From NCBI RefSeq assembly GCF_028641065.1, contig NC_073399.1:18972001-19036000 (forward strand): 64,000 bases of DNA, read 5' to 3'. The notes below the pieces were generated by a model, which did no database searches, was not told where the DNA came from, and saw only the letters and a list, made by a program, of their open reading frames with translations. Made by a program: the position numbers and the translations under genes. The stretch comes from Leucoraja erinacea. Taxonomy: Eukaryota. Each line of letters begins with the position of its first letter. Positions within the stretch are counted from its first letter, which is position 1. This document shows, in pieces, positions 2,446 to 43,300 of the stretch.

Positions 2446-2468
2446 CAAAGATCTTGTAGCGTTCTTTG
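2446..2468. mobile_element. 23-bp transposon-end footprint with 8-bp TSD
   Basis: CAAAGATCTTGTAGCGTTCTTTG flanked by CTAAAAAA on both sides. Confidence 0.7.
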
Positions 2469-5013: not shown

Positions 5014-18620
<13,607 letters not shown>

Positions 18621-18689
18621 ACGTCCACTGCCCATCTCGCCCTTCACATGGTGGAGCTGGGGCTGGAACAGCTGCGGTCACAGTTAGGA

Positions 18690-19015
18690 TCATGAGGGAT
18701 AGGAGCAGTATTAGGCCATTCAGCCCATCAAGTATACACCACCATTCAATCATGGCCGATCTATCTCGTCCTCCTAACCCCATTCTCCTGCTTTCCTCCC
18801 ATAACCTCTGACACCCGTACTAATCAAGAATCTATCCCTGCCTTAAAAATATCCACTGGCTTGACCTCCGCAGCCTTTTGTGGCAAAGAATTCCACAGAT
18901 TCACCACCCTCTGACTAAAGAAATGCCTCCTCATCTCCTTTCTAAAATAACGTCCTTTAATTTTGAGGTTATGACCCCCTAGACTCTCCCATTCCACATC
19001 CACTCTATCCAAGCT
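18690..19015 (-). mobile_element. CR1 LINE 3' end
   Basis: FFSQRVVNLWNSLPQKAAE; related copies at about 590-800, 5120-5390, 10140-10430 and 47425-47550. Confidence 0.85.
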
Positions 19016-19034
19016 TAACTCTGACCATATGAAG

Positions 19035-19054
19035 CAAAGATCCTAGGATCTTTG
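19035..19054. mobile_element. 20-bp perfect palindrome with degenerate 8-bp TSD
   Basis: CAAAGATCCTAGGATCTTTG flanked by ATATGAAG / GTATGAAT (6/8 match). Confidence 0.65.
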
Positions 19055-19299
19055 GTATGAATAGCTGGGGTTATATTTAGCTCTGACAATGCCACAATCA
19101 GCATGAGGTTTGCAGTTAACCTCTAATTGACACTTCAATTTACGGAATACCGACTATTATTTATAACAGGATTATGATTGCTACACCCATGTGGACTGGA
19201 GAAACAACATTTCGTTTGAACCTCAAGGGGTTCAAATGACAAATACATTGTATTGTATTGTATATTTGTATTGTATTGTATTGATGCTCTGGTCGGCAT

Positions 19300-19640
19300 G
19301 TGTGTTACTTGATACACCCATGATCTAATTCATTAGTAGGTTACCTGAAACACGCATGATCTGATTGACGGGCGTGTTCGCTGAAACACCCATGCTCTGA
19401 TTGTTGAGCGTATTAGCTGAAACATCCATGATCTGACTGACGGGCACATTACTTGAAACACCCCATGATCTGATTGATAGGTGCCCATGACCTGAAACAT
19501 CGTGCTCTGATCAGCCTGTGTGTTACCTGAATTATTCATGATCTGATTGATGGGTGCTTTGACAGGGGCCTCTCTGAAACACCCATCTTCTGCTTTACAT
19601 GTGTTTTATCTGAAACACTCATGGTCTGATGACACGTGAC
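19300..19640. repeat. Degenerate 36-bp minisatellite, about 9 units
   Basis: Consensus ttacctgaaacacccatgatctgattgacgggcgtg; unit starts at 19305, 19341, 19377, 19413, 19449... Confidence 0.85.
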
Positions 19641-19825
19641 TTTACAGTTAGTCTCATACATACACTAAGAGCAAAATCGTGCTAGACAAACTAATGGGGC
19701 CAGAGGCTACTCCCTTGGGCACAATGGCCACTAGGATCTTTGTGCAAGTCGATGCATTGTGGACACACGTGTTGTAATGTACTAAAATTTCCTGGATTCT
19801 GAAAAGGTCTTGAAGAAACACAAAT

Positions 19826-20140
19826 GGCGGCACAGTGACGCAGCAGTAGATTTGCTACCTAACTGCAGCAGAAACCAAGGTTCAATCATGACCACATGTG
19901 CTCTCTGTGTGGAATGTGCATGTTATTGCCGTGACTGTGTGGGTTGTCTACAACAAAGATCCTATAAGATATTTGGTCTACAATGATCTAGTTCCACCCA
20001 CATTCTAAAGTCGTAGGTTAATTGGCTTCTGTAAAGTGCCCCTGGTGTGCAGTATAGAACTAGTGTATGGGCGATCATTGGTCGGCGCGGACGCAGTGGA
20101 TCGAAGGGCCTGTTTCCACGCTGTATCTCTAAAACTAAAA
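19826..20140 (+). mobile_element. tRNA-derived SINE interrupted by a footprint insertion
   Basis: A/B-box-like head ggcggcacagtg...ggttcaatc, family core and tail ctaaaactaaaac. Confidence 0.82.
19954..19975. mobile_element. 22-bp near-palindrome with 8-bp TSD, inserted in a SINE
   Basis: CAAAGATCCTATAAGATATTTG flanked by GTCTACAA on both sides. Confidence 0.75.
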
Positions 20141-20699
20141 CCAATGGCACTATTAAGAGGCTGCCCTAAAGCAGGAAACTTTAGGGCAATTATCCTAACA
20201 TATGAATTGGAAAAACGCAGCAATCTATTATTAAAGAGTCCATTCAAGAGTCAAGAGCGTTTATTGTCATACGTACTGAAACGGAACAACTACATTTTTA
20301 CATGCAGCAGCAACAGCACAGCAGTTTTGTAATCATATTATATACATATTTTCGCCCAAATCTCAGCAACATGTTATTTCTTCGCTGTCAGACATCTCTT
20401 TATTAGAACTTACCACCGCAGGTTTATCGCCGCTTGATCCACTTTGGAACAGTGACCACACTTCAAAAGCATCTTCTGGGAGTAGCAGTGACCTTGGCCT
20501 AAAATTGATCACTGAGTCCCGCTGTCAACAAGTTTCATCCCATTCCGGAACCCACCTCCTATATTGGCCATGCCCCAAGCCCAATCTCATCGCCCACTAG
20601 AAGACAGCGAAACACAGAGTGCTGGAGGAACTCAGTGGGTCAAGCAGATTCTGGGGAGAGAATGCATGGACGGCGTTTCGGGTCGGACGCCCATTGTTT

Positions 20700-21300
20700 C
20701 ATTTCAGCTCCGCCCAGAGGAGCAGGCTCCGCATTGTCACCTAGGAGACGACGCCCCGTCACCTTGGAGACGCGGTATTGCTTTGGACCAAAGATCTTAT
20801 AGCAAAGCTTTGCTATAAGATCTTTGCTTTGGACGATGCGCTAGGCCCCGCCTCGTCACCTAGGAAACGCGGTATTGCTCCGCCTCAGAAGCAGACTCGG
20901 CCCCGTCACCTTGGAGACGTGACTTACTCCACCCTCGGCCCCGTCACCTTGGAGACGTGACTTACTCCACCCTCGGCCCCGTCACCTTGGAGACGCGGCC
21001 TTGCACCGCCCCACCAAAGACTCCGCCCCGTCACCTAGGAGACGTGACTTACTCCATCCTCGGCCCCGTCACCTAGGAAACGCGGCCTTGCTCCGCCCCA
21101 GAAGCAGACTCCGTCACCTAGGAGACGTGGCCTTGCTCCACCCCCGTCCCAGGTCCCGCCCTTAAGACTAGGGAACCTCGCCATGCTTCTCCACCACTCC
21201 TCCTGGCGGTCTGAGTGACGGGGCGCCGCGCCGCACCGAGTAGACAGAAGTGCGCGAGGACCGGACTTGTGGAAAAGACGGTTTCCTTGGACCCTGGCCG
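20700..21300 (+). promoter_or_regulatory. CpG-island promoter of the RUN-PDZ-PTB gene, with nine X-box-like motifs and GC boxes
   Basis: GTCACCTWGGARAC at 20736, 20758, 20855, 20905, 20943, 20981, 21030, 21068 and 21113, interleaved with ctccgcccc-type GC boxes. Confidence 0.7.
20789..20826. mobile_element. 38-bp perfect palindrome with 8-bp TSD (P-like transposon footprint or mini-MITE)
   Basis: CAAAGATCTTATAGCAAAG/CTTTGCTATAAGATCTTTG flanked by CTTTGGAC on both sides. Confidence 0.8.
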
Positions 21301-21309
21301 TAGACGAAG

Positions 21310-21346
21310 ATGTCCAGAAAGGAACCGCTGCTAGGCGCCTTGAAGG
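21310..21346 (+). CDS. RUN-PDZ-PTB gene exon 1
   Basis: aagATG, MSRKEPLLGALK, donor G/GTGAGT, within a CpG island. Confidence 0.8.
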
Positions 21347-24300
21347 GTGAGTGCAGTCCCGAGTGAGGCGGAACGGCCTGATGATGGGGCGGAGGAGGGG
21401 AGGTCAGTAAAGGGGCGGGGCCGTGCCTGGGTTTGGGAAGGTGGGCAACTTGTCACTGGCCACCTCTCACTATCTTCGTAAAATAATTCCAAACTACTTT
21501 GAAACAATCAGAGTGGGGAACTTCATTAAAACTTATGTCAGGGTGGAGCAGAGCAGATACTGGGAAATATTTCATTATAATCTATGTTGAGAAAAAGTAT
21601 TTGAGCAAGACAGAATACGTTGAACGATCTTTCCTATTATTATTAATTTACTGACACGTCGACGTCCAATTTTATTAAGTAAATCAATTCGGCCAAGATG
21701 AATTGATTGCAGAGGTGGCATGGAAGAAGTATATTTTTTGGGGGAATTAGTATTTTGGGAATTGTATAATCACCACATGAAGAAATGTATCTGAAGCAGC
21801 TATAAATTTATGACTCATGTTTGAACAGCACTTTGGTGGAAAGACATTTGTGTTGCAATACAATGGCCTCTATAAATACCATCTTTACCTTGTATTATCC
21901 TATTGCCTCTGCATACTATTGTGCATTATTTTACAAATCTGTGACGGTGAGCATTCTTCTTTCTTTGGCTCCTTGATTTGCTTTCTTTTTACAGTCTTCC
22001 CATTTTCTGTGTGTGGTTCTCTATAACTTACTTATAGGTTACATATAAATTATCTATTTGCTATATCCTATCTCTCCACCTCCGAGAGTCCCTTTTCACT
22101 TCGTGGCCATCGTCTTAGAAATAAATAAGACCAGTATTCCGCGGCCAGTCCATGTGATGAAGAATGTTTATGGCACAGAAGGCCATTTAACCCATGTCTG
22201 CTGTTCAAAAAGGGTTAAATAATCCAATGCCAACTGGATCGGCAACCACATCAAATGGGTGGTACAATGGGTCAACTGTTAGAGTTGTTGCCTCAAAGTG
22301 TCAGAGAGCCCGATTTGATCCTGACCTTGGCTGCTATCTGTGTGGAGTTTGCATGTTCTTTCTCCCCATCACCATGCAGGTTTCCTCTAGGTGCTCCGAA
22401 TTCCTCCCACTTCCCAAAGACGTGTGAGTTTTGTAGGCTAATTGACCTCTGTAAATTGCCCCTAGTGGATGGGGAGTGTGAAAGTGGGATTGTTAATTCT
22501 GGCCAAATTTGAGATGCCAGGACACTAAAATTGAGTAATGGCTTCTGGGCTGCTAGACCATTTGGTCAATTTAAATGTGCCTTCTGCAGAATGGTGCCAG
22601 TTTGTCTAGAGCCTAGATAAGAGTTGCAGGAAGAGAATGGAACATCTGCAGATTCTGACAATTAGGTGTAAATTGCATGGAAAGAATTGGGTGAATGCAA
22701 ACCAGACATACACATTGTAAATATTGTTGCAAAGCTTTACTTTGCTAGATGTTGATTGGGTTAAGTGCTGAGCCTTGTCTGGGTTTCTTGAATATCCAGA
22801 CATTTGTGTTGCATAATTCATCTCTAAACTTTCATCTAGAAACTTTGTCAGATACATTGTATTAGTCACTGTATTATTGGGTTTGGGGAATGTCTATCAT
22901 GTACTGGGTTAATCGATATCTGTTATTGGACTGTATACAGACCACCCCCATATGGTTCGGCCCCTCAAGGTTCGGGGACCTATAAAAGGCCGCTCCCACG
23001 AGGTCCTGTGTCGATCTTCTGGGACTGCATGACCTTCTGGAGTGTCTCTTCTTGCAAGAGGCTAGGAGGGCTTGGCCAGGCAGATACAAGGATCAAACCC
23101 GCGGTGGTTTGGTATAGTAGTGGGAACCGTTATTGTGTTTTTCCAAAAAATAAAGTTTAGATGCGCAAGTGCTTGACTCAGTATTTTATTGACTGAAACT
23201 AGACTGGGGAAGCTTAGAATGAGCTATTTACAGGATAACATAGAAGAGTGTTTTTAAGTCCCTCTTTAAACTATTTCTATAATAAATGTAATATTATATT
23301 TCTAAGTGCCTATCAATGCCTTTAGCTTAACTGCCCTGGTCACCACACTCCATGCATTTTACTGATTTCACATTAAATCCTAAATACTGGTCAAAGACCA
23401 GGAGTTTCCTGAACCATCTTCTTGTCCATTTGCTCTACTGGACAGAATCCCTCTATGCATGCACTCTTGAATCATAAGTAACCATCTCATGAAAGGTACA
23501 CTCTATGAAACTATTCGCTTCAGGATCAGCTGCTGCTCGGGCACAAACCCAGAGCTTGACTTGCCCCAGCCGATGTCACTTCATTCTGATTTGATTTAAT
23601 CACTAAACAAAATGATGAACAACATAATTAATAATTTAAATAGAAAGTTGCACCATTGCACTTGCCTCACTGAAGTCCCTTGCTCTCCATACACTGCACC
23701 TTGATTGTTCAGATCTATTGTTGGTGCCCAGTGTTAAATCCAAAACAAACACATTAGGTTTGACTCGGATCAGGATAACAGAGTCCATAGGTTTTGTTGG
23801 CTTATTGAAGTCTTCAAAATGATAAAGGAATTTGATAAAGGATATGCAGGAAACGATTTCCTCTCACAGAGAGGAAATAATCGTGTTATGCTATCAATTG
23901 ATGAAAAATAGGCAATATCCATGTCTGACACAATTCTTCTTGGACAGTAGGATATAGTAATGAGGGATAGCAGGAATAATGAAGTGGAGGAAAAGAGTAG
24001 CCATGATATTATATGGCAGATCAGTCTAGCGGACTGATTGGCCTCCTACTACTACCATACGGAAAATTTATTTTTATGAAATAACCAATCACTGTTTTAT
24101 TCAAGTAATTGCTTCAAATTGGGAGATAAAAGAAAGTAGATAAAATTAAGAGTTCTGAATTTAAAAACTAGACTGTCTAGTTAAAAAGGGTGTGGTTGCT
24201 GTAGACCATTGATGAGCAGTGAATGCAACTTGCATTCTTCATCATGTCACTGATGTCTTTGTTGCCTCCATGGTGAGGTTTTGATTGTTGTGGTTCTGCT

Positions 24301-40343: not shown

Positions 40344-43300
40344 ACCACCGTGTTTTCACAGATGTGGTGGTATGCTTTGGATTTTGGGCAGTTCATTCTC
40401 TCCTCCATACTTTGCTCTTGCCATCACTCTGATATGTTAATCTTCATCTCCTTTGTCCACAAGACCTTTTTCTAGAACTGTGGTTGCTTTTTTAAGTACT
40501 TCTTGGCAAACTGTAACCTGGCCATCCTATTTTTGCAGCTAACCAGTGGTTTGCATCTTGCAGTGTAGCCTCTGTATTTCAGTTCATGAAGGCTTCTGCT
40601 GACAGTGGTCATTGACAAATCCACATCCGAGTCCTGAAGAGGGTTTCTGATCTGTCAGACAGGTGTTTGGGGATTTTTCTTTATTATAGAGAGAATTTTG
40701 TCATCAGATCAAGCTCTTCCTTGGTCTGTCAGTTCCCTTTGTGACTAGTAAGCTCACCAGTGCTCTTTCTTGTCTCCAACAGTTTTATTCTTGTTTCTCA
40801 GTCTCATAATGGCTTCATTGACCTTCATTGGCACAATTTTGATCCTCATGTTGATAAACAACAATAAAAGTTTCCAACGGTGATAGAAAGACTGGATGAA
40901 AGACTAGTTGCTGAGAACTCTCTTATACAGCATTAAGGAGGCAATTAAACTCACCTGAGCAATTACAAATGCCTGTGAAGCCATGTGCCCCAAACATTAT
41001 GGTGCCCTGAAATGGGGGGACTAAGTATAAACACAGGTATAATTTTTACCTGGTGAAACCAAAATATATTAAAAAAACTTTTAATAAAATCTGATAAATG
41101 TGCACCACATGCGGTTTATTTATTTTTTATTTTTTCCTTTTTTTTTCTCTATTACAAATTTCAAATTGTTGAGTACAGAGGCAAATAAATAAATGATTGG
41201 TTTTTGTCCCAAACATTATGGAGGACACCGTATTTAGGTCATTAAAATTTCAGCCTAACCTACTGAGCATTTGCACAATATTTTGCTTTAGTCATTTGGT
41301 TTCCAAGAGCAATAACCGAGTAATGATCTTGTGCCTCTTGCTACATTGGCCAAATATACTGAGACCAACTGTGGTATCACCAATGCAGATAAGTTAATAC
41401 ATTCAGCAGGAATTAAAGCCGGGAGTTTCTTGTTTGTATATCTGTAGGCTTCCTGCAACTACATCTAAAACATATTCAATTCTATTTTTGTACATTAACC
41501 TCCGGAATTCCCGAGGGTGATGGGTAACTTGTTTCTTGCTGCCTATGTGCTTGTGTTAACTCCAATTTGCAATAGCCCATGTAAGAGACTATTAGATAAA
41601 TTTAAGTGGTAACAAAAGGTTTGAAAAAAGTGTATTGGATCTACTTTACTCTCCCATTCCTTGATTTGCAGTTCTACTACACATTAAACTTCAAATCTAT
41701 TTAACCTTTAACTCAAAAGCTTTTGGGAGCAGAGGGGTGTACTGTATTATGCACTCTGAGGAGTTGACTAATCCAGATTTGTTCTTGCACAGGTGTGCGA
41801 GATGTATAACACGGTCCCTTGTCGAGAGCTGGGAATGGTACTCTGGTAAGCGGCAACTTTGCAAGAGAGGCCTCACCAAGAAATATGAATTGATTGAATT
41901 GTATGTTGCAATGATCTCTTTCTGTGCTGTAACCATTCAATGATTCAGTCCCTATAATGATGACTACAGTGAAAAGTGGAAATTACAATGCAGTGCAGTG
42001 GGGGGGGGGGGGCACGGTGGTGCAGTGGTAGAGTTGCTGCCTTACAGCACCATAAACTCGGGTTAGATTTTGACTACAGGTGCTGTCTGGCAGAGTTTGT
42101 ATGTTCTCCTTGTGACCACATGGGTTTTCTCTGGGTGCTCAGTTTCCTCCTATACTCCAAAGGCGTAAAGGTTTGTAGGTTAATTGGCTTCCGTAAAATA
42201 TTGTAAATTGTCCCTTGTGTGCAGGATAATGCTAGTGTACGGGGTTATTGCTGGTAGGCCGGTCTCAGTGGGCCGAAGGGCCTGTTTCTGCTCTGTATCT
42301 CTAGAGTAAAGTATTTAATCGTGAGTCTTAGTGCCTGGAGGTTCGTAAATAACTAGAAAATGCCCCTAACTTCAAGAATATCAGAATTTTCTGGGCTTAA
42401 GTGTAAAGATTCTAGACTTGTCTATAAGAGTGACGGTGAAATAAAAAAACTATTTGGTGATCTGGTGGTTTAATGCTGAGACATTAGAAAAAAATTGTGC
42501 CTACTGACAGCTGGCATTTCCTTACAGGTACACTGGTGGCCGTATTTTTGTAACGGAGGTTATTGCGGGAAGTCAAGCTGAAGCAGATGAATGTGTCCAG
42601 GCAGGAGACATTATCGACGAAATTAATGGCGTTGCTTTGAGAAATGCCAAAGGGGGAGAAGTACGTGCCTCTTGCTCATTGTCAAAGAATGGCATCTGTC
42701 CTACACAGCATGTGTTTGTCTTCATTGTTGTACTCCTAGTGCCATTGATCTGGAGTTAAATCTCAGGTCTGCAGTAACAGTTTACTCCTTCAGTTTCTCC
42801 ACCCACGGGTTATCGTGTTTCGGTTCATTCATAAGACGTGGCAATCATCAGCAAGGCTGTTATTTGTTAGTGATCTTCAAATACCTTCAAGATAGCCCCA
42901 CACCTTCAACCACTGCAACCCTTGTCAACCAGATAACCAATGATACCCAGTATCACTGCTGCAAATTAACTTCCACCTAATGGTCACGTCGCACAGACAC
43001 ATCTGCACTTTAGTCTGTTTGAACTGTTTTGACTATTTTACTGTTGTAATGTTCTTTTTACAAACCATGTTCTCGGGGTATCTAAATTTTATTAGTTATT
43101 TAAATTATGACATTGGATGGAAGCTGCATACCAAATCTCGTTGTGCTTATGTGCAATGACAATAAAATATAATATTATTATTATTATTATTATGCTAATA
43201 CGTTTGAGAATTATTATCCAGTTTAGTAAGTGAGTGATTAAATGTAACAACATGTTTGATCCAGTCAATAACTTTGTCTTGGTCCATCACAAAGCCAGGT

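Follow-up and report, generated by a model that had tools for sequence, protein, structure and literature searches.

Thousands of short palindromic inserts in the genome of the skate Leucoraja erinacea are best interpreted, with a probability of roughly 0.86, as end-joined donor sites left by the excision of P-superfamily elements. These inserts share their termini and 8-bp duplications of the target site (TSDs) with long elements, some of which encode a P-type transposase, and the arms of terminal inverted repeat (TIR) that they retain stop at a single position of the TIR. This position lies at 20 nt, or at 18 nt in a variant TIR that is 2 nt shorter, which fits a long staggered cut, though not one of 17 nt. 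If this reading is true, the cut geometry of a transposase could be read from the genomic fossil record without biochemistry.

The inserts were noticed within a window of 64,000 nucleotides (contig NC_073399.1, positions 18,972,001 to 19,036,000), for which the first-pass annotation had reported three inserts with common termini. Their places, sizes, palindromes and TSDs were rechecked and stood as described (Table 1), and 8 was the sole fit among the TSD lengths of 6–10 tried on the window inserts. Two of the three satisfy the strict pattern of the genome census described below, for which chance predicts 0.0035 matches per 1.8 kb (P ~6e-6, calculated post hoc). Read against the TIRs, insert 1 may represent two TIR stubs joined either on a 4-nt CTAG microhomology (short-TIR type, 12+12) or on a 2-nt TA microhomology (long-TIR type, 11+11). 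With insert 2 and one TSD deleted in silico, the sequence again aligned with numerous copies of the short SINE-like repeat that hosts it (SINE being the first-pass label), and these copies provide the empty paralogous sites for this insert. The same annotation had also listed an orphan element end; it is unsupported because two of its letters (19735 and 19741) differ in all four related sequencing runs and a partner end for this 12-mer was searched for and not found, and it was consequently dropped.

The surroundings of the inserts showed several further features. Upstream of the plus-strand gene, some 10 GTCACCTWGGARAC units form the array that hosts insert 3; they presumably resemble RFX X-boxes. 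A decayed 36-bp tandem array (19273-19630) lies between inserts 1 and 2, and a 39-bp tandem duplication at 18408-18481 doubles the galactokinase start codon. A Pfam scan of 142 of the 161 window frames returned galactokinase exons and one PDZ exon, and yielded no identity for the plus-strand gene; the PDZ-domain exon, at 42508-42756 (+), is possibly part of that gene, whose likely first exon lies at 21310.

Table 1. Inserts and neighboring features in the window, with positions counted from its first letter.
Feature	Position	Strand	Size and palindrome	TSD	Remarks
Insert 0	2446..2468	.	23 bp	CTAAAAAA, perfect, 8 bp	Fourth, decayed scar; missed by the first-pass annotation
Galactokinase (GALK1-like), first coding exon	18262..18471	-			Left flank of the head-to-head region
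Insert 1	19035..19054	.	20 bp; palindromic 20/20	ATATGAAG / GTATGAAT, 19027-19034 / 19055-19062, 6/8	
TIR-like 12-mer ('orphan end')	19731..19742	-			In window sequence; unsupported as element end
Host repeat of insert 2, SINE-like	19826..20140	+			Bounds approximate
Insert 2	19954..19975	.	22 bp; palindromic 18/22	GTCTACAA, 19946-19953 / 19976-19983, 8/8	14+14 over CTATAG; in SINE-like repeat
Tandem array of GTCACCTWGGARAC units	20724..21156	+			Hosts insert 3
Insert 3	20789..20826	.	38 bp; palindromic 38/38	CTTTGGAC, 20781-20788 / 20827-20834, 8/8	20+20 over 2-nt GC overlap
Likely first coding exon	21310..21346	+			ATG to GTGAGT donor; right flank, CpG-rich stretch

A census of genome G000 with the strict pattern CAAAGATC N(0-30) GATCTTTG recovered 4,248 matches against 7 for the reversed pattern used as a control; being exact, such patterns overlook decayed copies. 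Among 81 distinct short inserts in the fetched loci, 57 are flanked by an 8-bp TSD matching at 7/8 or better, and TSD lengths of 5, 6, 7, 9 and 10 fit at most 3 of the 81. The matches do not all represent independent events, as 70 centred loci collapse into 53 flank clusters and about a quarter of the sampled loci are copies carried in other repeats; as a rough estimate from a sample biased to long arms, independent exact-match scars may number about 3,000. Of these 53 independent scars, 26 have an 8/8 TSD, 40 have one matching at 7/8 or better and 13 fall below 7/8. Empty paralogous sites were recovered for 20 of 103 short inserts (one being a self-overlap match). Though short enough to escape repeat annotation, the scars are likely more numerous than the surviving long copies.

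Some scars sit inside other repeats and others inside P elements themselves. One CpG-rich dispersed host repeat (L180-L182, L186, L187, L198, L200-L202, L206) has spread a single scar to many contigs, and a second (L007, L141, L151, L153, L185) has likewise spread one, with filled and empty units of both repeats found side by side. The P elements themselves harbor scars and nested members of the family (in L015, L009 and L046 and in intron 1 of L095), some of them inherited by many copies; an element of short-TIR type, with an 8-bp TSD, is nested in L046.

MITEs and other short palindromic non-autonomous elements are, like the skate inserts, short, TIR-bounded, TSD-flanked and abundant. We nevertheless regard it as most improbable that the 20–40-bp palindromes are themselves minimal mobile elements driven by the P transposase, even with copies in the thousands, recurring sizes and fresh-looking TSDs speaking for it. 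The first 15 loci already hold ten different lengths, and the sizes that recur are those that microhomologies predict. Identical multi-copy forms have common flanks and are therefore carried in host repeats, so that the homogeneity of length and sequence at independent sites that marks a MITE was not found. Unlike MITEs, the skate inserts have no homogeneous master sequence, and their arms are capped at one TIR position. Moreover, fly P requires internal transposase-binding sites beyond the TIR, according to the available text of PMC7776569, and such sites are unlikely to fit within 20-nt arms.

Longer elements with these termini, whose existence the first-pass annotation had anticipated, span 0.9-10.5 kb and are flanked by 8-bp TSDs. 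Extending the terminus to 22 bases gave 2,138 genome matches, and a variant end 2 nt shorter gave 561, including a 3.4-kb non-autonomous family; exact long ends in the genome thus number at least 2,699. On C1, 18 long-TIR pairs enclose 894-8,062 bp with differing left and right subterminal sequences, and non-autonomous copies of the P family measure 0.9-3.9 kb. The 8-bp TSD is perfect in 19 of 23 long elements, and the target consensus S-T-N-N-N-N-A-S is identical for these 23 elements and the short inserts. A search for the P GTP-binding domain family returned 38 genome matches; when 20 transposase loci were extended, 12 ended clearly in the family terminus (background check: no end 11-mers in 200 kb), and all coding copies examined between these termini were P-type, none hAT.

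The predicted THAP/P transposase partner was likewise recovered. An element at C956:134044-144562 has both ends and a perfect 8-bp TSD and encloses a 773-codon exon that matches PF12017, PF21787, PF21788 and PF21789 above cut-off and the fly structure PDB 6p5a with an E-value of 1.3e-42, while D206/D296/E524 of P0001 line up with the catalytic D/D/E motifs. A THAP (C2CH) domain is encoded in the TIR-bounded deleted copy L049 (PF05485, E 1e-10 on exon 2, with a weak match on exon 1), and exons homologous to its THAP exons are present in L095. The parent element accordingly agrees with P-superfamily membership in the sequence features tested, namely the THAP and transposase domains, TIRs and TSD. 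Two other long elements, L046 (8 kb) and L047 (3.9 kb), were rejected as transposase sources, the 6 frames scanned giving a weak zf-RVT match and no transposase match.

Six copies of the 773-codon exon are 98.4-100% identical. An 882-aa open spliced frame of three exons, with a GC-AG second intron, was found in three of the five copies tested (C1305, C1087, C1296); C956 and C1188 are frameshifted and have no full spliced frame. Because near-identical transposase ORFs (98-100%) occupy different sites, the family moved recently, and the uninterrupted 882-aa copies may still be active; if so, they would offer a P system native to a non-teleost host, together with thousands of natural germ-line end-joining products. 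The six copies do not all represent separate jumps: over 1.6 kb the flanks of C1188 and C1305 are 98.6% identical, making these two duplicates, and the C956 flank is different. The near-identical copies (C956, C1087, C1188, C1296, C1305, C154) all lie on small contigs, and the C956 element carries a LINE-like insertion within its 3' part.

The long TIR is carried by a second transposase subfamily, whose amino-acid identity to the first is 78-79%. Part of copy L108 matches the first subfamily at 97.6% identity, yet L108 also has a long-type end, and TIR type is therefore not strictly bound to enzyme lineage. Within the best 120 of 356 protein matches, those relatives that bear a name are molluscan (34-40%); with most matches lacking a name, this gives a weak hint of a horizontal origin of the transposase. 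Separately, a 733-codon P-transposase-derived frame at L111:4474-6672 (G000:C3:15.88 Mb), 71% identical to the mobile copies, has no family end within 10 kb and is 99% identical to P0004, whose cluster comprises 32 members, the 15 listed being all 677 aa; it is a candidate domesticated copy.

For the length of the scars' arms, a staggered cut predicts a hard upper limit. Matching the short inserts to the long TIR, with an allowed gap of 0-30 nt after the arm throughout, gave 1,451 arms of at least 18 nt, 990 of at least 20 nt, 74 of at least 21 nt and 21 of at least 22 nt, with base 21 departing from the TIR in 916 of the 990. In most of the 74, the extra A is attributable to the opposite arm; of the 21 longest arms, 13 are equally readable as a 20+10 join, and five inserts clearly overrun the limit, past base 25. 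A 21-nt overhang was rejected because blunt 20+20 joins occur (4 in the first 100 rows of the list of arms of at least 20 nt) and 21+21 joins do not (0/74).

The limit shifts with the TIR. Among 155 arms of at least 16 nt assigned to the short-TIR variant, set against its 561 long ends, one gets to base 20; most of those listed end at base 18, and blunt 18+18 joins occur, about a third of the rows being one inherited 36-bp mixed 18+20 form. One event, present in duplicate (L189/L190), may be taken for a short-variant arm of 19-20 nt. In either TIR type, GAGC lies just before the limit and AAGAT just after it, and the stubs retain both TSDs with arms not exceeding the inferred overhang. A hard limit was thus recovered, at 20 nt, and at 18 nt in the variant, rather than at the 17 nt known from Drosophila. 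From the paired limits we lean, by a modest margin over even odds, toward a P-superfamily stagger that is no fixed 17-nt ruler, in which the inner cut would track GAGC^AAGAT, shifting from 20 to 18 nt with the 2-nt TIR indel, perhaps through fold-back pairing of AAGAT. The two TIR types, with their limits of 20 and 18 nt, provide a direct and cheap handle on what positions the inner cut, and the arm-limit method is applicable to any genome with P-type elements.

The same limit bears on a transposase-independent collapse, whereby slippage or recombination between short repeats in both TIRs would have deleted long elements, a process comparable to the 'nearly precise excision' of bacterial transposons. 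Microhomology at 36 of 70 junctions and the direct repeats supplied by palindromes internal to the TIR are compatible with such a collapse, which we still consider very unlikely: slippage has no cause to halt at base 20 or to shift its limit to 18 with the TIR variant, and blunt 20+20 joins need no homology. The form expected from the 5-nt AAGAT microhomology (bases 21-25) occurs at only 12 sites against 990 20-nt arms, and the matching form without this microhomology occurs 7 times.

A further reading accepts excision and holds that the stubs were recopied from the sister or homologue by gap repair that aborted early, making arm length a measure of synthesis rather than of the cut. That P donor sites undergo homologous repair is established, by the available text of PMC7776569, and long internally deleted copies were probably made in this way; the five inserts with arms past base 25 also point in this direction. 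Aborted repair, however, predicts a tail of lengths past the cut, and only 8 of the 990 arms exceed base 21 outside the ambiguous 20+10 form. We therefore give it little credence as a general account, while the few long-armed inserts probably do derive from it. Slippage, minimal mobile elements and aborted gap repair each fail on a limit sharp to one base that moves with the TIR.

The junctions of the 70 loci are divided into 36 with overlap, 5 blunt and 29 with an insertion or mutation; templated insertions and other junctions are exemplified by L007, L146 and L176. Under excision followed by end joining, the element would insert with an 8-bp duplication, favoring S-T-N-N-N-N-A-S targets in CpG-rich DNA. 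To release it, the transposase would make one cut at the tip of the element and a second, on the opposite strand, between GAGC and AAGAT, such that each flank keeps a 20-nt (or 18-nt) 3' tail of the TIR. The identical tails would be end-joined blunt (40 bp), with short templated insertions, or alternatively via 2-6-nt self-complementary words, giving products of 38, 33, 28, 27, 22 and 20 bp. Once fixed in the germ line, a scar would be immobile alone and spread only as a passenger of other repeats. With thousands of such scars, the genome would contain a natural record of how long, non-complementary 3' tails are end-joined in the germ line.

The cut position is here read from end products; the apparent position could be displaced by trimming or by repair proteins that protect the tail. 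In a comparison of 88 long ends with 103 short inserts (~1 Mb fetched), no site held a complete element in one copy while another copy was scarred, and excision is for this reason not directly observed. As to how the inner cut might be placed, one AAGAT copy occupies bases 3-7 and a second lies immediately inside the inferred cut, so that five pairs could form between the non-transferred strand and the transferred-strand tip; this pairing would close a loop of variable length, with the 2-nt TIR indel falling between the AAGAT copies. The arrangement would resemble the fly strand-transfer complex, in which the transferred strand is looped out and folds back to pair with the non-transferred strand's 5' part, bases -14 to -18 being disordered (PMC7776569, available text).

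Such footprints are already known from fly experiments, as is a TIR-bearing P-type element from zebrafish. In the available text of the fly studies, Drosophila P is cleaved at its 3' ends with the other strand cut 17 bp inside (PMC7776569). After repair, its donor sites still have the two 8-bp TSDs; between these, each TIR contributes at most 17 nt, and the join is blunt, relies on microhomology or includes templated insertions (PMC2895639). The skate family shares with Drosophila melanogaster P a transposase of THAP-HTH-RNase H/GTP-binding-insertion architecture with aligned D/D/E, the 8-bp TSD, TIR tails joined between TSDs in the same three ways, and clustering. Its target motif resembles GTCCGGAC at positions 1, 2, 7 and 8 (PMC3276498, in the part available); this is non-discriminating because hobo's motif is similar. 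Unlike fly P, the inferred tail is 20 or 18 nt rather than 17, the TIR is ~25-32 bp with another sequence, the 882-aa frame has three exons with a GC-AG second intron, and the scars are fixed in the genome by the thousands, whereas the fly junctions were recovered from laboratory crosses.

Among vertebrates, zebrafish Pdre2/zfTHAP9 is likewise P-type, with TIRs, an 8-bp TSD and internally deleted copies, but Pdre numbers ~50 copies with 13-bp TIRs of other sequence, against at least 2,699 exact long ends and ~4,000 scars in the skate; the available portion of that account maps no cut position (PMC10983969). Human THAP9 has the same protein architecture and is, by the available text of PMC7776569, single-copy and without TIRs, in contrast to the multi-copy skate family with its TIRs and TSDs. 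The literature covered, lying mostly outside subscription journals, contained no account of this family, which may already be catalogued in Repbase or Dfam, no description of P elements in skates or cartilaginous fish, no report of P scars fixed throughout a genome, and none of a stagger that departs from 17 nt.

Concerning insertion context, the CpG observed/expected ratio (o/e) in the window is 0.64-0.90 at 17501-19000, 0.33-0.50 at 19001-20000 and 0.76-0.84 at 20001-21500. For 45 single-copy scars away from long ends, flank CpG o/e has a median of 0.59 against 0.38 in 200 background kb (p 3e-8), although this background was drawn from 20 stretches and young CpG-rich repeats could yield the same signal. 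Island-like flanks accompany 7 of the 45 scars and 11 of the 200 background samples (p 0.03), and CpG o/e around scars declines with distance from 0.63 to 0.46. Scars also cluster on C1, where 6 of 49 gaps are below 10 kb and 1 would be expected (p 4e-4); some of these lie inside P elements. For fly P, a preference for promoters and local hopping are described (PMC7776569, available text). The first-pass suggestion of a germline-open promoter stands insofar as the first exons are arranged head-to-head and CpG is enriched; the three window inserts would then be independent visits, at different times, to this CpG-rich promoter region.

The ages of the window inserts were approached through related organisms, by aligning contigs of four runs (organisms A-D) to 18800-21400. 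Between the window and orthologous pieces of B-D, divergence amounts to ~2-3%. Contigs of B and D extend across insert 2, and the two letters that would make its palindrome perfect are present in all four runs; common to these relatives, it is therefore older than their split. The proposed recent P-type activity thus holds for the family and does not extend to every scar. The window differs from all four runs at 19735 and 19741 (toward the TIR-like word) and at 19967 and 19971 (away from the palindrome), letters that are either private alleles or assembly errors. The bin at 19061-19147, adjoining insert 1, has almost no cover in any of the four runs.

For insert 3, a contig of organism C covers 20799-21044, including the right part of the insert. 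In organism B, 157 letters of a 238-letter contig align to 20620-20777, and the contig end was placed near 20904 with the help of a same-depth difference at 20885 and of the next bin's depth; the remaining 81 letters therefore imply a skip of 46, equal to insert 3 plus one TSD. By this contig arithmetic, insert 3 is likely absent in organism B and so likely varies between related organisms; such scars could serve as lineage markers.
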